Positions 5,699-19,643 of a stretch of DNA of 30,002 nucleotides are shown here, piece by piece. Made by a program: the position numbers and the translations under genes. Every line of letters begins with the position of its first letter. Position 1 is the first letter of the stretch. The DNA comes from an uncultured Candidatus Saccharibacteria bacterium (GTDB lineage Bacteria; Patescibacteriota; Minisyncoccia; Phycocordibacterales; UBA2100): the NCBI GenBank assembly GCA_964409155.1, contig CAYPCF010000001.1:4404-34405 (forward strand), written 5' to 3'. A model generated the notes under the pieces. That model had not been told where the DNA came from, did no database searches, and saw only the letters and a list, made by a program, of their open reading frames with translations.

Positions 5699-8600
5699 AT
5701 GGAGAACGGACTTGCGGAAAAACCATCCTTTAAATTGGGAGGATTGCGCGAAATTGTGAAAAAAGTGTTAGGAGTCCCGCGTATCTTAGGCTTGAGTGTT
5801 TTACTTGCTATTCCCGGGGTAAATCCTGCTTCAGCAGACAGTGAGGTGGAGCTCAAATCAACCCAAGTGCAACCTGAAGAACCCAGCAAACTTAACAATC
5901 TTAAATATGATTATGCTATCAGTAAATTTACCGCTTTGCCCACCATTGAGCGCATGGCGAAAAATCCATTGCAAAGAAAATTGCTGTATTACATACCAAA
6001 AATAGCATTAAATGATAATCCGTATAATCTGTCCACTTCCCTTGAAGTTGGCGCTGATAATCCACATATTTTACTAGGGATCAATATAAAAACCATAGAT
6101 GAGGAACGTGCGCTTGAAGATTATATAATATCAAATATTGAGAGTCCTAACATAAAGAAGTTGATTAACTTTATCTATATGTCTCAAGAGATTGATGCTG
6201 TTCAGAGCAATTTTATTCATTTAGATGATCAAGGGCAAGAAGAAACTGACCCTCTTACTTTATTAGAGAAAACTATAATAAAAAGTGAAGATAAAATAAA
6301 AACTTTTCTTCATGAGAACTTAGATGAAAATGATTTTAAATTACCTCGATCAATACTTTATGCATATCTGGAAAGGCACCCGGGGCAAATTAAAGAAAAT
6401 CGTGAAAAAATTATAAAGTTTATCGAGAATGATAACAGTGGTGCCGCGCTTCATTTTTTGTTCTATATTATGAAGCAGCCGGATCTTAGTATCAAACTCA
6501 GCTTGTTCTCCTCACTTAATGAATTCTCTCGCTTATTAATGCAAAAAGCGAAAGACAACAAAGAATTTTTCTGGTTATACATGTCTACCGTGAGAACAAA
6601 TTTCTCAATGGATGAAAAAGATAGGGATAATATAGAAAGACTTATAACAAATAGAGATTTTTATAATTCATTGGGAAATGATTTTGATTGGTCGGATTAT
6701 ATAAAAGGTAATAACCGCGAGCAGAAAGGGGTTAATATAATGTTCGCTTTTGGATATTCAAATATTATGAGCGAAGGTTCTGCAATTCCGGTTGGCACAA
6801 CTTTAGATAGGCAAATTAACAAATTGGTCGGGGACAATTGGATATTTATGAAAAATGACCCCGGTTTTAAGATGTTACTCAACAATCCAAAATTTCCATC
6901 GAAATTACCCATGGAAACACAATTCAAATTAGCCAAAATAAGTGAACAAAAAATCTTACAAGGCACGAAAGAGCATTTGTATCATAAAATTTACAGTTCT
7001 TTGCTTTCTCACTCTAATTTTATTAGTACTTATTTTTTAAATGAAATTACTCCCAAAAAACAAGTTGACTTGTTGAGAAAAATAGATTCCACACAATTGT
7101 GGCATATAATGTTTAGACTAGACATGCGCTCATTACCCATCGTCAAATACTCTCTGGGTAAGAATCAATTATTAGAACACTTAAAACCTTCAGATTTTTA
7201 CAGCGGTTTGAAATCAGAAGATGGCGCGGCAAGATTTCTTATGCGCTTTATTCTAAGAGCTACAGAGGTACAACTCCCTAATGAGAACCATTTATATAAT
7301 ATGGTGCGTAATTTCCTTAAAGAGGAGGAAGGGGAAGATGCTAAAATGGTTGACAAAGCTTTGATACATCTAAAAACGCAGCTATATTTTCATAATTCAA
7401 AAGGTGGGTGGGAAAACAGAGAAAAAATAATAAAATTGATATCTCATGAACATCGTCTTAGACTACTTAAATTATCCGCCACAGATAGACCTCTAACACA
7501 TGCAAGCTATATTGAAAGAAATTACAACAATCTTCCGCAAGAAGATATAGATGCAGCCATAAATGGTCTTAAAACATTTGTATTGAATGCATTATCAGGT
7601 AACGCCGGAGACTACCAATACAATAAGGTGATGCGTGTTATAAACCATCTACACCCATCCAAACTAAGTAAATATCGTGGAGAGATTATCAGCTTATTGA
7701 GCCCAAAACAACGCTACGCTTTGAGTGTATACGGCGCGGAGGAATTATTTACATCCACTTCAACTTATGTAAGTTATTTATTCCCGGCGATAATGAAAGA
7801 TATACAAAAATATGGATTACAAAGATATATACAATTAGTTGATAAAAATAATCAGCTACTCGGGAGGTTTCTTACCGTTGCCGCACGCTACGGTAAACTA
7901 AGTCTGTTGTTTAAGGATTTCTCATTTAATAATATGAGTGATATTGTCAAAGACATGTTAAAAAACATAAATGCGGATACTGCACTTGCAACGGTGGAAA
8001 TCTTTAAATTGCTTGCAGATAACCAAAGCGATACAGAAAAGCTACTTTCCGATCTGTATGATTTAGACGCACAATTACAAAACAATGGTAACATGGTAGG
8101 GGAGAGGCTTCTGGAGAGTGTTGTTTCTCTAATTTATAACTCTTCAATCAAAAAGAATGCGTCCACCTATAACAAAAAACTTAGAGCATGGCTTCAGAAG
8201 TGTTCAGAACGAGAACATATTTTTATACCTAACACGATATCTTTTGACAAATTATATTTGCAAGAAGGGGACAAAATGGTACATAGACAATTGTGGTTAT
8301 TTTTTGAAGGAGGTGACAAAGACGGGATAGCATCAAGATGGAGTGCCGAGACTCAACTTCGAAAAGCCGGTTTCAAATTTAAGACTTTAAAAGATGATAC
8401 TCGTTTGGCCACCAAATCAACAGGGAATAAAGTAGTTGAGATATATCTGAGTAATATTATTGATGTTCATAATATAGAACATGCATCAGATTCTGTTTCG
8501 CCAACTGTCATGAATTTAATACATGGCTCAGATAAAAAGTTCCAGGTTCTAAGTTATAGAGGGCATAGTACATACATACCAAATCTTTCAGACTTTTTAA

Positions 8601-12781: not shown

Positions 12782-13666
12782 TTATTCCGCTTCCTCCAAG
12801 CGCTCTAAAAATTCTTGCAACGGCATCGCTGCGCCGGCTGCAAGTTTATGCCCATTACCTCCACAGGCTTGCGCTAAATCAACAGGATACGGCTTGAAAC
12901 TTTCACTCGCACTCCTAAAAGACAAATTTACCGTATTGCCAAACACTTTGAACATCAGCACCGGCTCTTTGACCTTCTCAGACATAGCATTCCCAAAATC
13001 GCTGACTATCGGCCGTATTGACGCGACATTATATGCTTTGATTTTGTACCCTGAGACATTAAAATGCAGAGCGCTTGCATTTCGCAAATAATAATCTATC
13101 AGCATATTTTGATAATCCAGCACCGGCTGGGCTTTTTTGTATAAGTCGTCAAGATCCGCGTTGATAAATTCAATAAATTTATCTAAATCATCCAGATATA
13201 TTGCAGCGTAACTCTCAATCAGTTTTGACTTTGTTTTGTCTTCATATCTGTAAAGATCACCGTCTTCTATGTGCCATATAAACTTTGGCATCTTTTTGTC
13301 CGGGAAAAGATAGGACCATGTCAACGAAGCGCCGGACTTCTCATTGTCAAATACATAGCGCACATTGTCGTATTCTTTGGCTATCGCGCTGAGATTGTTG
13401 TATTCACCCATATGATGGTCAAGCACGGTCACTGCTGCGCCTGTCTTGGCGAAGTCTCTTACAAACCATGGGTTATCCAACACATACACCTCAACTTGCT
13501 TATTATCGTCCAGCAAATCCAGCACCTCATCTTTAATATCCGCATGCACTGAAGACTTCACCGGGAAAAACCGCGCATCAGGATGTGCCATCTTAAATAC
13601 TGCTGCCGCGCTGGAGCCGTCAAGACATGCTCCATGGTAAGTTACCACTTTCAAGTTATTCTTCAT
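12782..13666 (-). CDS. DHH/DHHA1 phosphoesterase (NrnB/oligoribonuclease-like)
   Basis: YHGACLDG, VLDN, VLDHH, SGASLTW, EDGDLY, C-terminal GNGHKLAAG. ATG 13666 overlaps the murG end by 11 nt; the track's upstream extension lies inside murG. Confidence 0.85.
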   Translation of the reverse strand: MKNNLKVVTYHGACLDGSSAAAVFKMAHPDARFFPVKSSVHADIKDEVLDLLDDNKQVEVYVLDNPWFVRDFAKTGAAVTVLDHHMGEYNNLSAIAKEYDNVRYVFDNEKSGASLTWSYLFPDKKMPKFIWHIEDGDLYRYEDKTKSKLIESYAAIYLDDLDKFIEFINADLDDLYKKAQPVLDYQNMLIDYYLRNASALHFNVSGYKIKAYNVASIRPIVSDFGNAMSEKVKEPVLMFKVFGNTVNLSFRSASESFKPYPVDLAQACGGNGHKLAAGAAMPLQEFLERLEEAE

Positions 13667-14798
13667 GTTGTAAGGCAATTTTAAGTAATATGTCAGCAAT
13701 CTTCCTTGCGGCGTCAGGCTTGGCAAAAGCTTTTGCTGAACGCGCCATTTTCTGCCAGAGAACCGGGTCATTCATTATGCGTCGTATTTCATTTTCCAAG
13801 AGAGTTGCAGTGAGATTGTCCTGTTTGAGAACGGTAGCGGCGCCCGATGCAGAATAAGCAAAAGCGTTGTATGTTTGATCATGTGAGACATCTTCCGGAA
13901 TCGGAATCAATATGCTTGGCAGACCCACGGCGGCTATTTCAAATATCACACCTGAACCTGCGCGTGATATCACAAGGGATGAGACACCGTGCGCCATACG
14001 CAGAGCAAGCGCGGACAAATATCCATATGGCTTATACCTCTCTTTAAACGGAGACGCCTGCAACTTCAAATCAGCCAAAGCTTTGACCTCGTCAAAGTTC
14101 TCAGAGCCTGTCTGATGAATAATCTGATAATCCTTTACCAACTCAAGCAAGGCGTCCATCAAGACATCGTTTACTTTCTTGGCGCCGGTGGAACCTCCGA
14201 GAACAAGCAGTGTCGGAACAGAAGAGTCAAGTTCTAAGAATTCATACGCCCCGTCGCGTACAGGCCTGAATATCTCCGGACGCACAGGATTACCGGTGAG
14301 GATGAATTTTTTACGCTCAACATTCTTTGGGAAGAATTTCAAAACCTCATCATAAGAGATAGCAACGGCTTTTGCCCATTTTGATGCGATTACATTTGCC
14401 TGTCCGGGGTGTGCGTCTGACTCATGTATCACTACAGGTATTCCTAAAAAGCGAGCAGCGACAGTTGTTGGGAACGCCGCATACCCACCTTTGGAAAAAA
14501 CAATATCCGGAAAAATCCTATAAAGTTGCCATGTCGCCTGCAATATCCCAAATGCGGTTTTAAAATAATCAAAAAAATTACGGATTGAAAAATACTTACG
14601 CTTCTTCCCCGCAGCCGCCTTAACAAAACGCATACGCCTTTGCACTAACGCCTCTTGGTCTAAGACAAACGGACCGATATATATCAACTCCGGCTCTATA
14701 ATTTTCTCTGTCTTGGCTATGTGGTTAATCTCATCTGCCACCGCCATCAACGGGTAAAAGTGCCCGCCTGTTCCTCCTCCGGTAAAAACTATCTTCAT
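13656..14798 (-). CDS. murG: Undecaprenyl-PP-MurNAc-pentapeptide GlcNAc transferase MurG
   Basis: TGGGTGGHFYP, KGGYAAFP, HESD, TGNPVR, GGSTGA, SRAGS, HDQTYNA. Confidence 0.95.
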   Translation of the reverse strand: MKIVFTGGGTGGHFYPLMAVADEINHIAKTEKIIEPELIYIGPFVLDQEALVQRRMRFVKAAAGKKRKYFSIRNFFDYFKTAFGILQATWQLYRIFPDIVFSKGGYAAFPTTVAARFLGIPVVIHESDAHPGQANVIASKWAKAVAISYDEVLKFFPKNVERKKFILTGNPVRPEIFRPVRDGAYEFLELDSSVPTLLVLGGSTGAKKVNDVLMDALLELVKDYQIIHQTGSENFDEVKALADLKLQASPFKERYKPYGYLSALALRMAHGVSSLVISRAGSGVIFEIAAVGLPSILIPIPEDVSHDQTYNAFAYSASGAATVLKQDNLTATLLENEIRRIMNDPVLWQKMARSAKAFAKPDAARKIADILLKIALQHEE

Positions 14799-15522: not shown

Positions 15523-16395
15523 TTATTTATTTAGTAAAATATTAACAGCATTAGAGATAATCTCCAATAAGTCATCATAAAATTTAAGCTCTCGTATGTC
15601 TGCAAGACGAAACCACTTGGCATCATCCAGACCGCCATCGGATTTCAGATGCAAATCATCAAAAGGCACCTGCGTTAGGAAATAATTTACCTTACGCAGG
15701 ACCTTATCACCCTGCTTGTTTTTTGCTTTGTATTGACTTTGCCCCAAGTTATCCTGAACCGATACGATGTCTAAGCCTATCTCCTCTTTTACTTTGCGCT
15801 TGAGCGCCTCTTCATCTGTCTCAGTGTCATGCTTTTTCCCTTTGACTACAGTCCAGTATCCAAATATATCATGCACTACGGCCACATATACATCTTCATC
15901 ATGCTTTGTGTAAGGAAGCGCAGCTATCACATCTTCTGTGCCTGTAATATCACCTTGCTCATCCTTGCCCGGCTCACCCATCTCGGTATATACGGCACCC
16001 AGAACACCGTTGACAAATTTTGAGCTTCTGTCTGAACCAAACTCTTTGGCTAACTCAATAGCCTCATTTATCGCCACTTTATAAGGCACATTATCATGGT
16101 CAGCAAACAAAAGCTCAGAAAGACCTATGCGCAATATATTTCTGTCTATCACCGCTATGCGTTCAAGTGGCCATTGCGGAGCCGCTTTTTGTATGATTTT
16201 GTCAAGATCATTTCTCTTTGCAAGAATTGTCTCAAGCAGTGTCTTGATAAAAGGAAGCAGCTTTGTGTCGCCTGCAAATTCTGCGAAGTTACGCATGAGA
16301 ATATCATCATTGTTTTTACCCCAAAGATTATCACTGTCTATCTCAAACAGTGTCTGAAGAACTATGGCCCTCCCCAATGTTCTACCTTTTAACAT
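15523..16395 (-). CDS. nusB: Transcription antitermination factor NusB fused to a C-terminal Nudix hydrolase domain
   Basis: NusB motifs WPLERIAVIDRNILRIG, VAINEAIELAKEFG, SKFVNGVLG; C-terminal ~140 aa carries a Nudix-box-like GKKHDTETDEEALKRKVKEEIGL. Confidence 0.9.
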   Translation of the reverse strand: MLKGRTLGRAIVLQTLFEIDSDNLWGKNNDDILMRNFAEFAGDTKLLPFIKTLLETILAKRNDLDKIIQKAAPQWPLERIAVIDRNILRIGLSELLFADHDNVPYKVAINEAIELAKEFGSDRSSKFVNGVLGAVYTEMGEPGKDEQGDITGTEDVIAALPYTKHDEDVYVAVVHDIFGYWTVVKGKKHDTETDEEALKRKVKEEIGLDIVSVQDNLGQSQYKAKNKQGDKVLRKVNYFLTQVPFDDLHLKSDGGLDDAKWFRLADIRELKFYDDLLEIISNAVNILLNK

Positions 16396-16452: not shown

Positions 16453-16493
16453 AAATAAAAGAGGCGCGGCCTACGGCCGCGCCTCTTTTATTT
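16453..16493. terminator. Intrinsic terminator (bidirectional-type) after rpmF
   Basis: 19-bp perfect inverted repeat AAATAAAAGAGGCGCGGCC-TAC-GGCCGCGCCTCTTTTATTT overlapping the rpmF stop, with U-tracts on both strands. Confidence 0.85.
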
Positions 16494-16856
16494 CTCATCT
16501 TTTTTAGCTGTGCTCTCTTTTTTCTTAGCTCCCGCTCTTTTCGTTGCAGCTTTACTGCTCTTGTTAGATTTCGTTTCGCTCTCTGTCTTTTTATTTTTTT
16601 CTGTCTTTTCTTCCACTTTGTTTGATGAAGCTTCTGTTGTCGCTGTTTTAGCTTGCATTTTCTTTAGCCTTGCCTCTTGTTTCGCCACAACATCAACTAC
16701 CATCTTGCCACGGTAATACCCACACTCGGGGCAAACTCTATGCCTTAGGTGATACGCCCCACAGTTGGCGCACTTGGACAAGCGCGGCTCTTTTATATGA
16801 TGATGGGAACGACGGTTGCCCGTATGCCCTTTTGTTACTCTCATTCTTGATGACAT
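16488..16856 (-). CDS. rpmF: 50S ribosomal protein L32 with a long charged C-terminal tail
   Basis: NRRSHH, CANCG and HRVCPECGYYRG zinc-ribbon motifs, followed by a ~65-aa K/E/T/S/A-rich extension. Confidence 0.93.
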   Translation of the reverse strand: MSSRMRVTKGHTGNRRSHHHIKEPRLSKCANCGAYHLRHRVCPECGYYRGKMVVDVVAKQEARLKKMQAKTATTEASSNKVEEKTEKNKKTESETKSNKSSKAATKRAGAKKKESTAKKDEK

Positions 16857-16864
16857 ATTGCGCT

Positions 16865-16892
16865 ATTATACATTTTTATAGACATTTGGCAA
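16865..16892 (-). promoter_or_regulatory. Promoter for rpmF
   Basis: Minus strand TTGCCA, 16 nt, TATAAT, 8 nt, ATG. Confidence 0.6.
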
Positions 16893-16944: not shown

Positions 16945-18339
16945 TTATTTCTTTTTATTTGTATTTTCAGACAGATTCTCTCTGTAAAATTCTTCTGCTA
17001 CTAATCTCCCATTTACTTTTCTTAATATTCCCCCAAAAAATGACTCTTCAATCTTTGTTATGCTCAAATTTGTTACTGCGGATACCTGAGCTATTGCATG
17101 CTCTAGCCATTTTCTAGGGACAACATTAAATAATCTCTGCATTATTAACACTTTCTTTTTTAAGTCATAAAGAAGATGATTGGAAAAGCCGCTTTCGTTT
17201 TTATTGCCCTCGTGTAGAATCTGTATCTCTACATTTACGGGGGTGGATTGATAGATAATCTTAAATCTTAGTTTAATATCTTTATATTTATACGCGCTTT
17301 TTTTGTTATCTCTGTCAAATTTTATATCAAGATTTGGAAATTGATTTGATATATTATCTATTTCTTTTTGACTCAATAAATCACCCTTTATTTCAAGTCT
17401 AAATATTTTTCCGTTGTCATATTCGTCTATTCCATAAGCTTCTTTTTGAGAAGTAAAATATTTGATGATATGTGACACAAAGATAGGTATATTATTGTGA
17501 GCTAATTCTATTCTTATACCTACTGCATCTTTTAAAGCCTGGTTTAAATTCGCCTCTCTGTTTAGAATAAGTTTCATTGCGGCGCTATACATACTCTTAA
17601 GTCTGGAGCAATACGAGGCTTTTATATCTAATTCCGGAACAGAAGATTCCTTGCATGACATTACGACGTCTTCAGAAGTCGATATCAGCAATGGTTCTAT
17701 ATCGTCCAGCTTTCCAAATATGGCCTCATTCAGAAAATGAAAGGCTTTCTCTCTTAGTTCTATTCGTCCATCATTTAACATAAACATCACGACGGTAGTC
17801 TTCACAAAGGCACAGAGAGCGACATGTTTCAACAAAGCGTCTTGCGATATTTTCCTCTTTCTACCCTGAGTATTTATTTTTTGCAGTTCTTTATATATAA
17901 TCTTCAAATCATTTAGTTCATGTGCATGTTGTATATGCTCTAGCCAATCTGTTCTATCCCTATCAATTCCAGTAGGCGCTGCTACCAGCGCTCTCGGGAT
18001 ATCCAAAACTTCTCGCAAAAAATCCATCGCCGCTTCAGCTGATTGTTTTATTTTCAATAAATATTCATCATCGGTCATTTCTTCAGATCTCGGGAATTGA
18101 GCATAAAGATATTTAACCCAAGCAGGAATTTCTGAAACTTTTGTTTTCTCTTCTTCAGCAGCTGGGATAGAAGGCAAATCTATAACAGTAAAACCTGTTC
18201 TTGTATCTATCCCGGAGTTCCCCAAAATTCTTCCTGCATCATGAGCATCAGATCCCTTTATTGTATGTCGTAATGAGACAAAATCTGCTCCTATATGCCC
18301 ACTCCTTCCTCTCGTCTCTTTTGGTGGTAACTCTGCCAT
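16945..18339 (-). CDS. Hypothetical protein with a divergent RelA/SpoT synthetase-like (small alarmone synthetase-like) C-terminal domain
   Basis: Ordered motifs SRLKSMYSAAMKL, LKDAVGIRI, YKYKDIK, VEIQI, NHLLYDLKK match the RSH synthetase Syn1-Syn5 order. N-terminal ~235 aa unrecognised. Confidence 0.65.
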   Translation of the reverse strand: MAELPPKETRGRSGHIGADFVSLRHTIKGSDAHDAGRILGNSGIDTRTGFTVIDLPSIPAAEEEKTKVSEIPAWVKYLYAQFPRSEEMTDDEYLLKIKQSAEAAMDFLREVLDIPRALVAAPTGIDRDRTDWLEHIQHAHELNDLKIIYKELQKINTQGRKRKISQDALLKHVALCAFVKTTVVMFMLNDGRIELREKAFHFLNEAIFGKLDDIEPLLISTSEDVVMSCKESSVPELDIKASYCSRLKSMYSAAMKLILNREANLNQALKDAVGIRIELAHNNIPIFVSHIIKYFTSQKEAYGIDEYDNGKIFRLEIKGDLLSQKEIDNISNQFPNLDIKFDRDNKKSAYKYKDIKLRFKIIYQSTPVNVEIQILHEGNKNESGFSNHLLYDLKKKVLIMQRLFNVVPRKWLEHAIAQVSAVTNLSITKIEESFFGGILRKVNGRLVAEEFYRENLSENTNKKK

Positions 18340-18347
18340 GCTTTGCT

Positions 18348-18376
18348 ATTATATCACGATAATATCATTTAGTCAA
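18348..18376 (-). promoter_or_regulatory. Near-consensus promoter for the RelA/SpoT-like gene
   Basis: Minus strand TTGACT, 17 nt, (TGa)TATAAT, 8 nt, ATG. Confidence 0.7.
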
Positions 18377-18424: not shown

Positions 18425-19033
18425 TTATTTTTCATTTAAAAAACTCAGTCTGTGCTCTTCGCTTACACCGAGCTTGCGCAAAGCGTCAAAATGCGCTTTT
18501 GTCCCATAGCCTTTGTGTTTTTCAAAATAATATCCCGGATATTTTTTTGCAATCTCTATCATATATCTGTCCCGTAAAACTTTTGCCACCACAGATGCCA
18601 AAGCTACCTCTATGAATTTCTCATCTCCTTTAGTAACGCTTTTCCAGTTGTATATATCCGGAGCTTTCAATGCTCCGTCTAAAATTACAGACTCGCTTGG
18701 AGCAGCTCCTATCTGTAACAATAAATCTGCAACGGCTTTTTGTAAAGCTTCAGAGATACCATGCTTGTCTATATACTTTGCGCTTAGAAAAATATGCTCG
18801 TATTTTATGTGTTGCGCTTGTAAAATATACTCAAAAATCGCATCACGCCTTTTCTCGCTAAGTTTTTTAGAGTCTTTAAATGGGCTCGCCAACATAAACG
18901 ACAACGGCTCTGAATCAAAATCTTCCCTTAAGGCTTCCATATCTTCCACTTTCACAACAGCCACAGACAATGGCCCCGCTATGGGCCCACGCCCCGCCTC
19001 ATCTATCCCATATATCAAGTTTTCTTTAAGCAT
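18425..19033 (-). CDS. rnhB: Ribonuclease HII
   Basis: GIDEAGRGPIAGP, DSKKLSEKRR, ILDG, KGD, ASVVAKVLRD, KHKGYGTKAH, HRLSF. Start ATG 19033 overlaps the SET gene stop (ATGCTTAA). Confidence 0.95.
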   Translation of the reverse strand: MLKENLIYGIDEAGRGPIAGPLSVAVVKVEDMEALREDFDSEPLSFMLASPFKDSKKLSEKRRDAIFEYILQAQHIKYEHIFLSAKYIDKHGISEALQKAVADLLLQIGAAPSESVILDGALKAPDIYNWKSVTKGDEKFIEVALASVVAKVLRDRYMIEIAKKYPGYYFEKHKGYGTKAHFDALRKLGVSEEHRLSFLNEK

Positions 19034-19427
19034 ACAAGTGTTTCTCAGAGCCACATGCGCAACCTTTCGGTTTGATAAATTCTTCAAAATACTCTCTGCC
19101 GTAGTCAAAGCCCAGCTCATCACCCGCTTTTATATCTTTTAGGGCGTGGAAAACTATCTCACCCGCTTCTATCTGCGCTTCTAAGTTTGGTTTACAGAAA
19201 TGATTTATATAGCGCGCAATATTGTCTCTGCCGGAACCGTCTATTGTATAGTCATCATCTATCTGAAACAAATACCTCGTATTCAACTTATCAGCTTCTT
19301 TTGTGCTAATGAGTTTACCTGTATATTTTATGACAAAATCCCCCTTTTTGATGTCCTCTCCTGCAAAAAGCCCCAAACCCGACACACCACGCTTGACCAT
19401 GACTTTTTTAGCTTTTTGTGATAACAT
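19026..19427 (-). CDS. SET domain protein-lysine methyltransferase
   Basis: GLGLFA, ARYINHFCKPN, ELGFDY and post-SET CACG. ATG at 19427 preferred. Confidence 0.9.
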   Translation of the reverse strand: MLSQKAKKVMVKRGVSGLGLFAGEDIKKGDFVIKYTGKLISTKEADKLNTRYLFQIDDDYTIDGSGRDNIARYINHFCKPNLEAQIEAGEIVFHALKDIKAGDELGFDYGREYFEEFIKPKGCACGSEKHLYA

Positions 19428-19430
19428 AAG

Positions 19431-19461
19431 ATTATAGTAACAAAAAAGAGTATGCTTGCAA
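19431..19461 (-). promoter_or_regulatory. Putative promoter for SET-rnhB
   Basis: Minus strand TTGCAA, 16 nt, TACTAT (overlapping TATAAT), 6 nt, ATG. Confidence 0.5.
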
Positions 19462-19643
19462 ATATTCATTCTATTATCTTGTGGTTGACGATTCTGCTAT
19501 ACTTTTTGATTACCATAACCTTGTTTTATCATTGGTATAAATACACCATAAATCCAAGCGTATTTTTGTTTTCGGTTATTATCTACCTTGGGCTTACAGC
19601 TTTTCCCCTCTTGCTTATGGCGGTTGCAGTGGGTGCCATGTAA
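19452..19643 (+). CDS. Small two-TM membrane protein
   Basis: 63 aa with two hydrophobic helices separated by HWYKY; fills the gap between the SET and PH-domain genes. Confidence 0.65.
   Translation: MLANIHSIILWLTILLYFLITITLFYHWYKYTINPSVFLFSVIIYLGLTAFPLLLMAVAVGAM

Follow-up and report, generated by a model that had tools for sequence, protein, structure and literature searches.

A divergent stand-alone RelA/SpoT-fold protein with a conserved predicted ATP site and a rebuilt acceptor loop in a tiny-genome Candidatus Saccharibacteria bacterium

The window analysed here is a stretch of 30,002 nucleotides from an uncultured Candidatus Saccharibacteria bacterium (assembly GCA_964409155.1, contig CAYPCF010000001.1), and its subject is the gene at positions 16945-18339. 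The minus strand of this segment encodes a complete open reading frame (ORF) of 464 amino acids (aa), stop codon included, which is the only long ORF there; the plus-strand reading is stop-rich. The initial annotation, made from the sequence alone, had described a divergent stand-alone enzyme resembling the synthetases of the RelA/SpoT homologue (RSH) family, and the residues on which it relied, R246-L-K-S, D271-AVGIR, Y350-K-Y-K-D, E371-IQILH and H388-LLY, are all present with correct numbering; the strand is newly supplied. From its N-terminus the protein comprises an orphan helical domain, an RSH synthetase-like catalytic domain and a basic C-terminal domain, and, as first reported, no HD, TGS or ACT domain was matched in it. 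The coordinates of these and the neighbouring features are collected in Table 1.

Exhaustive searching of 1.84 billion cluster representatives with phmmer gave 49 relatives at E<1e-3; almost all are 450-490 aa long, and the nearest are 57-60% identical to the 464-aa protein. Conservation was counted in an alignment of 51 sequences with a mean column identity of 16%, to which the residue counts below refer. Only four columns of this alignment are invariant, namely those of R246, K248, D271 and E371, and these are exactly the RSH catalytic residues. Conservation reaches at least 90% for Q373, N381, E382, H388, Y391, R402, C176 and position 405. The catalytic domain opens with two lead-in helices (C176 in 47 of 51), which align with the helices preceding the SYNTH domain in Rel and in small alarmone synthetases (SAS).

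Within the first synthetase motif (Syn1), previously given as R246-L-K-S, the invariant R246 and K248 stand, whereas S249 is found in only 18 sequences; the phosphate-helix residues are instead S252 (34 sequences) and K256 (Lys in 46, Arg in the other 5). In Syn2, G274 is kept in 44 of the 51 and position 276 is Arg in 38 and Lys in 10, and both hhalign and BLASTP aligned this motif to the D-x-x-A-L-R motif of Rel. In FaRel2, residues R64, K66, S70, K74, D90 and R95 bind the ATP triphosphate, Mg2+ and adenine (PMC11782079). The spacing of R246, K248, S252 and K256, with D271 15 residues further on and R276 after another four, equals that of these FaRel2 residues, and the combination of Syn1 and Syn2 by which an RSH donor site is recognised is present.

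The C-terminal half of the active site is likewise conserved, with Q373 of Syn4 in 47 sequences and H388 and Y391 of Syn5 in 46 and 48, respectively, which gives both the E-x-Q of Syn4 and the H-x-x-Y of Syn5. The spacing of 100 aa between D271 and E371, already remarked upon in the initial annotation, is borne out (88-123 across the 51 homologues, median 102) and is due to an acidic insertion between Syn2 and Syn3 that all 51 members carry. In the structural model this insertion forms extra strands (residues 313-318 and 337-341) and a helix (residues 324-333).

Syn3, which in classical RSH enzymes forms the acceptor loop, is rebuilt. The Syn3 position had been assigned to Y350; an aromatic residue does belong in this region, but Y350 itself is variable and the conserved aromatic is residue 352, a Tyr in 27 and a Phe in 23 of the 51 sequences. 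A comparison by hhalign with 30 Rel proteins from relatives aligned no more than Syn1-Syn2 at default settings, and a greedy setting extended the alignment over the full domain, placing Y352 on the Tyr of the Rel G-loop and K356 on its His. The reported loss of the GYxSLH His is consistent with this low-confidence alignment and with the column counts of the family, which put a Lys at the His position. Alarmone synthetases have a positive acceptor patch, which is reduced in the tRNA-modifying FaRel2 (PMC11782079), and we infer from the sequence that the basic loop round residue 352 is closer to the alarmone-synthetase patch than to the reduced patch of FaRel2.

An AlphaFold2 model built with the 51-sequence alignment had a mean predicted local distance difference test (pLDDT) value of 87.7 and a predicted template modelling score of 0.88, with low confidence for residues 1 to about 40. 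A Foldseek search of the PDB placed RelP, RelQ/SAS1, the small GTP-pyrophosphokinase-family entries 3l9d and 2be3, and FaRel2 in places 1-10 (E 6e-3 to 0.1). VIA, a Foldseek-independent structure search of 48,161 chains, ranked SAS2 first (6fgk, Z 8.1, model residues 187-425), followed by Rel-DarB (8acu, Z 7.3), an exported Streptomyces SAS (8vx3, 7.2) and Rel (6yxa, 7.0), with RelQ and RelP (both 6.6), SpoT (6.5) and CapRel (6.2) lower. The best viral structural matches were RelA/SpoT, Tas1 and YjbM proteins. The structure prediction that had been proposed as a check therefore returned RSH synthetases (RelP, RelQ, SAS2, Rel, CapRel) as the best solved matches.

The sequence profiles gave a concordant picture. 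Residues 245-394 align with Pfam PF04607 (RelA_SpoT) from profile position 1 to 111 out of 113 (E=2e-4, 22 bits), essentially a whole-profile match to the model that had been suggested for such a check, and 17 of the 51 homologues match the same profile independently at E<0.01 (best E 1.1e-6). When the family profile was run against PDB sequences, GTP pyrophosphokinases came first, weakly (E 0.016-0.37); phmmer against PDB sequences and a word-indexed profile search added nothing, and a search of genome contigs for related loci gave no confirmed locus. The RSH, Pol-beta-like synthetase fold claimed in the initial annotation is upheld by the top matches of Pfam, the PDB profile, Foldseek and VIA. 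The fold match is not decisive alone, and together with the sequence evidence it makes the assignment to the RSH enzymes highly probable.

The N-terminal domain, modelled alone, reached a pLDDT of 82.7, and its conserved residues are T51, D54 (44 of 51), P122 (43 of 51) and D144. No convincing fold relative was found in the PDB (best Z 5.5), in the AlphaFold database (AFDB) clusters (no match) or in the ESM Atlas (TM <0.4), so that the domain, first described as one without known identity, is an orphan helical domain. Matches of the whole model to AFDB proteins named 'HD domain-containing' raised the idea of a pseudo-HD domain, which was rejected, as the lone domain has neither an HD-fold match nor a conserved HD motif. 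The 'gating' role proposed for this domain is pure conjecture, plausible as regulation by analogy with other multi-domain RSHs. The C-terminal domain has an isoelectric point (pI) of 9.9, the family median being 9.5, and model residues 384-460 gave weak matches to winged-helix domains in VIA (Z 5.0-5.7). Longer homologues (541-818 aa) carry no Nudix or HD Pfam domain.

The initial annotation had also suggested a possibly new RSH-fold subfamily, a claim that is not supported in its full extent, because about half of the homologues weakly but consistently match two catalogued families, TIGR04552 and TIGR04562, across the N-terminal and catalytic domains. TIGR04552 is an uncharacterised family present in Myxococcus (MXAN_4858) and Bdellovibrio (DOE51_RS08710). 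The 464-aa protein itself has no NCBIfam match at E<=0.1, and 24 of the 51 homologues match TIGR04552 (best E 5.5e-10) and 23 match TIGR04562 (best E 1.6e-11). These matches cover profile positions ~10-199, in the N-terminal domain, or ~160-356, in the catalytic domain, and together correspond to residues ~48-405, which reproduces the architecture of a helical N-terminal domain and a long RSH-like domain under one profile; the C-terminal domain lies beyond the profile end, which maps to residue ~405. The curated cut-offs (125 and 140 bits) are not reached by the homologues, which score at most ~38 bits. By these profile matches, the 464-aa protein is a distant branch, lengthened at its C-terminus, of the uncharacterised TIGR04552/TIGR04562 superfamily and is not a member by the curated thresholds. 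Look-ups combining language-model and structure comparison, which serve as leads only, pointed to unnamed clusters in Woesearchaeota, Acidobacteriota, Myxococcota and Thermodesulfobacteriota. One family member of 651 aa (locus L055, 68-2023) translates only with TGA as a sense codon, so a lineage that has recoded a stop codon also harbours the family.

The assembly measures 0.49 Mb at a completeness of 83%, and the genomes of relatives range over 0.4-1.3 Mb; the bacterium has a reduced genome and is probably of the Patescibacteria/CPR type. A canonical Rel of 533 aa (HD_4, RelA_SpoT and TGS) is encoded on another contig of the same genome, and a search of 41 relatives found Rel in 34. The divergent RSH-like gene is accessory: 7 of 61 relatives carry it, as do 8 of 401 genomes sampled evenly across the phylum. 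In its lineage it occupies a fixed slot in the order rnhB, RSH-like gene, rpmF, nusB::nudix and rnc, which is kept around homologues of 40%, 34% and 25% identity. An ORF of 343+ aa that follows rnhB in a same-genus genome is unrelated and not a hidden homologue. More distant homologues lie between pheST and nrd/rplI, between hrcA and yidD, between dus and serS, after yqeY, or in the order rplK, rplA, Y1 transposase gene, homologue and thrS. The IS200/IS605-type Y1 transposase gene (locus L065, 3391-3768), directly upstream of a 25%-identical homologue, is the only mobile-element neighbour among the nine independent loci compared.

Among these nine loci, no conserved small partner, antitoxin or defence gene was found, and PADLOC models gave no match; the lack of an antitoxin ORF noted at the outset holds for this locus and for the other homologue loci. 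A toxic SAS (toxSAS) is recognised by an adjacent or overlapping conserved antitoxin gene, and the neighbours here are rnhB and rpmF, with housekeeping genes elsewhere. A toxin-antitoxin or CapRel-like defence system was rejected on this gene context and on the PADLOC result.

Our analysis favours, with moderate confidence and on the strength of sequence and model, an active cytoplasmic, non-toxin, ATP-dependent 3'-pyrophosphokinase of RSH fold that would serve as a second, accessory RSH beside canonical Rel. The predicted ATP/Mg2+ donor site is complete and conserved, comprising R246, K248, S252, K256, D271, R276, E371, Q373, H388 and Y391, and ATP would be bound as in SAS enzymes. E371, with Mg2+ held by D271, would then catalyse the step in which the acceptor receives the beta,gamma-pyrophosphate on its 3'-OH; the purine base of the acceptor may stack on residue 352, and the Lys-rich loop (K346/347/351/353/356) would carry its phosphates. 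A purine nucleotide as acceptor and a (p)ppGpp-like or (p)ppApp-like product, possibly a non-canonical or novel alarmone, are suggested by the conserved stacking aromatic and the basic loop, an identification that we put at about even or marginally better. Regulatory input might come from the N-terminal domain, the C-terminal domain or both. Retention of the gene beside canonical Rel in a genome of ~0.5 Mb suggests a non-redundant role.

Several observations weigh against this interpretation or favour an alternative. The G-Y-x-S-x-H of Syn3 is absent from the 51-sequence alignment, in which neither Gly nor Ser occupies its canonical place, and past Syn5 the 464-aa protein departs from its own family at Q401 (Thr in the family) and at position 405, which is Gly in 49 of 51 homologues but Asn here. 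Such a degenerate acceptor motif would suit a pseudoenzyme that has lost its transfer activity and serves as a scaffold or as a sensor that binds nucleotides; yet the donor-site and catalytic residues are all invariant or nearly so at 16% mean identity, a signature of selection on catalysis that leaves this explanation very little room. Slightly less remote, and still very unlikely, is a generic nucleotidyltransferase of the Pol-beta superfamily that transfers a nucleoside monophosphate to a protein, a small molecule or RNA and only resembles an RSH enzyme. In VIA, the generic nucleotidyltransferases TdT, MenT1, TENT5, OAS1 and aminoglycoside adenylyltransferase stand at Z 6.0-6.5, the first three of them at 6.3-6.5, near the RSH matches, whose margin (at most 8.1) is modest, and the RelA_SpoT gathering threshold of 27 bits is reached neither by the 464-aa protein, at 22 bits, nor by any other family member (best homologue 26.4 bits). 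The G[GS]...D-x-[DE] signature of classical nucleotidyltransferases, however, is absent, whereas the RSH-specific R-x-K with its S/K helix, the single strand-2 Asp, E-x-Q and H-x-x-Y are all conserved, and it is RSH synthetases that head four independent searches.

Other points concern the acceptor. The full-domain hhalign alignment has a low probability of 27%, and since it also needed the greedy setting, the equivalences of Y352 and K356 are provisional. The change of the equivalent Tyr to Phe has been used to cripple classical RSHs (PMC11782079), so the natural Phe352 in almost half of the family may indicate a different acceptor chemistry or a wrong alignment, and it argues for a different way of holding the acceptor. 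The basic, winged-helix-like C-terminus could point to a nucleic acid as substrate instead. An alternative to a nucleotide acceptor is pyrophosphorylation of an RNA 3' end (the CCA end of tRNA or another), as carried out by FaRel2, PhRel2 and CapRel, by a self-controlled housekeeping regulator of translation that holds its RNA with the C-terminal domain, the N-terminal domain or both. In its favour, the structure searches matched CapRel (7ztb) and FaRel2, the family can dispense with the Tyr hydroxyl at 352, the basic C-terminal domain (family median pI 9.5) gives weak winged-helix or 'putative nucleic acid binding' matches, and translation genes (rpmF, pheST, rplI, serS, thrS, rplK/rplA, dus and yqeY) are frequent neighbours. 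Against this, the winged-helix matches stay under Z 6, no antitoxin, pseudo-Zn-finger or Panacea-type domain or PADLOC match accompanies the protein, and the Lys-rich acceptor loop resembles that of alarmone synthetases, FaRel2 having a reduced patch instead. The translation-gene neighbourhood is weak evidence, because such genes form a large share of tiny genomes. We therefore regard an RNA acceptor as unlikely, and the nucleotide-directed pyrophosphokinase described above remains our preferred reading.

RSH enzymes hold a central place in bacterial stress signalling, and members found more recently synthesize (pp)pApp or pyrophosphorylate tRNA 3' ends. The finding is incremental, as the family is already catalogued under TIGR04552/TIGR04562, and what is new is the remote, C-terminally extended branch in tiny genomes. 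The widespread, uncharacterised TIGR04552-like side branch is nevertheless a promising place to look for a new product or target, because the ATP/Mg2+ machinery is kept while the acceptor pocket is redesigned. A bolder proposal, which we consider rather doubtful, is that TIGR04552-like enzymes, the tiny-genome branch included, would make no (p)ppGpp but an undescribed nucleotide messenger, or would act as non-toxic housekeeping regulators by pyrophosphorylating one specific RNA 3' end, with the orphan N-terminal domain as sensor. If so, a second alarmone-type pathway, independent of Rel, would be kept even in genomes of ~0.5 Mb. In practical terms, the family offers a testable target in one soluble-looking protein of 464 aa with defined catalytic residues.

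The near-consensus promoter reported for the gene is confirmed as a consensus match (11 of 12 positions plus an extended -10 TG); 8 nt separate its -10 element from the ATG, and no Shine-Dalgarno sequence is present. The rpmF promoter likewise matches at 11 of 12 positions, ends its -10 element 8 nt before the ATG and has no Shine-Dalgarno sequence. Because of this arrangement, both mRNAs are probably leaderless or nearly so, and such mRNAs without a leader may be frequent in the genome. The L32 protein encoded by rpmF is 122 aa long and ends in a long tail rich in Lys and Glu, whereas its versions in syntenic relatives have 93 aa; a strong bidirectional terminator hairpin follows its gene. 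At the locus of a 25%-identical syntenic homologue (L053), an extra unannotated ORF of 93 aa (6492-6773) separates the RSH-like gene from the gene of the 93-aa L32 and may be a diverged rpmF duplicate.

The NusB-Nudix fusion downstream is conserved in the syntenic loci of distant relatives. In one relative without the RSH-like gene (G006), rnhB, a small ORF and NusB-Nudix lie side by side; the fusion is therefore independent of the RSH-like gene, and a functional coupling between the two is weakened as an explanation. AFDB proteins named after Nudix or HD domains match the whole model. On the other side of the gene, a SET-domain protein of 147 aa is encoded just upstream of rnhB and overlaps the annotated start region of rnhB. 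Further away, the 329-aa ORF labelled as a DHH phosphoesterase has no Pfam match at E<=1e-3, and its 5' end overlaps the 3' end of murG by about 116 nt as listed.

Table 1. Features of the RSH-like gene and its surroundings, in positions of the window.
Feature	Position	Strand	Basis
Divergent stand-alone RelA/SpoT-fold protein, 464 aa	16945-18339	-	ORF and homologue clusters
Orphan helical N-terminal domain, residues ~40-165	17845-18222	-	model of the domain alone, conservation
RSH synthetase-like catalytic domain, residues ~166-405	17125-17844	-	VIA, Foldseek, Pfam
Syn1, predicted ATP-triphosphate site, R246-x-K248-x3-S252-x3-K256	17572-17604	-	column counts, FaRel2 spacing
Syn2, D271-x-x-G274-x-R276, predicted Mg2+ ligand and adenine-stacking Arg	17512-17529	-	column counts, hhalign, BLASTP
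Family-wide acidic insertion between Syn2 and Syn3, about 40-50 aa, residues 296-344	17308-17454	-	spacing and model
Rebuilt Syn3/acceptor loop, N345-x2-S348-x3-[Y/F]352-x3-K356, Lys/Arg-rich flanks	17272-17307	-	column counts
Syn4, E371-I-Q373, predicted catalytic Glu	17221-17229	-	E371 invariant, Q373 conserved
Syn5, N381-E382-x-G384-x3-H388-x2-Y391, aligned to Rel A-E-x-G-x3-H-x2-Y-K	17167-17199	-	hhalign, column counts
Basic C-terminal domain, residues 406-464	16948-17124	-	pI, weak VIA matches
Sigma-70-type promoter of the RSH-like gene, TTGACT-17-TATAAT	18348-18376	-	consensus match only
Sigma-70-type promoter of rpmF	16865-16892	-	
Ribosomal protein L32 (rpmF)	16488-16856	-	
Bidirectional terminator hairpin	16453-16493		
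NusB-Nudix fusion	15523-16395	-	Pfam NusB 7.5e-31, NUDIX 4.9e-10
SET-domain protein	19026-19469	-	Pfam SET 4.2e-24
329-aa ORF	12782-13771	-	

Compared with known systems, the 464-aa protein has its best structural matches in RelP/SAS2 and RelQ/SAS1 (6fgk, 6ewz, 6ex0, 5dec, 5ded and 5f2v), with which it shares the stand-alone organization without a hydrolase domain and the conserved Syn1, Syn2, Syn4 and Syn5. It is only 13-16% identical to them and has 464 aa against about 200, and it differs from them in its ~40-aa insert between Syn2 and Syn3, its lack of G-Y-x-S-x-H, an extra N-terminal domain of ~165 aa and a C-terminal domain. The toxSAS and CapRel enzymes (FaRel2, 8pu4 and 8pu1; CapRel, 7ztb) resemble it in fold and in the identical spacing of the donor site, and CapRel also in carrying extra domains on the synthetase. 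In contrast to them, it has no antitoxin gene, pseudo-Zn-finger domain, defence-island or mobile context or PADLOC match, and compared with CapRel in particular its C-terminus is only weakly winged-helix-like and its context is that of housekeeping genes.

With the long RSH Rel (the copy in the same genome; 8acu and 6yxa), the SYNTH domain aligns, model residues 188-384 corresponding to Rel residues 203-340 (Z 7.0-7.3), and BLASTP and hhalign align Syn1-Syn2. Unlike Rel, the 464-aa protein has no match to HD_4, HD or TGS, thus lacking the hydrolase, and the lone model of its N-terminal domain is unlike HD domains. The closest architecture is that of TIGR04552/TIGR04562, in which a helical N-terminal domain is likewise followed by a long RSH-like catalytic domain and whose genes are likewise chromosomal. 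Relative to those families of Myxococcota and Bdellovibrionota, the branch described here resides in tiny-genome bacteria and carries an additional basic C-terminal domain extending about 60-90 aa past the profile end.

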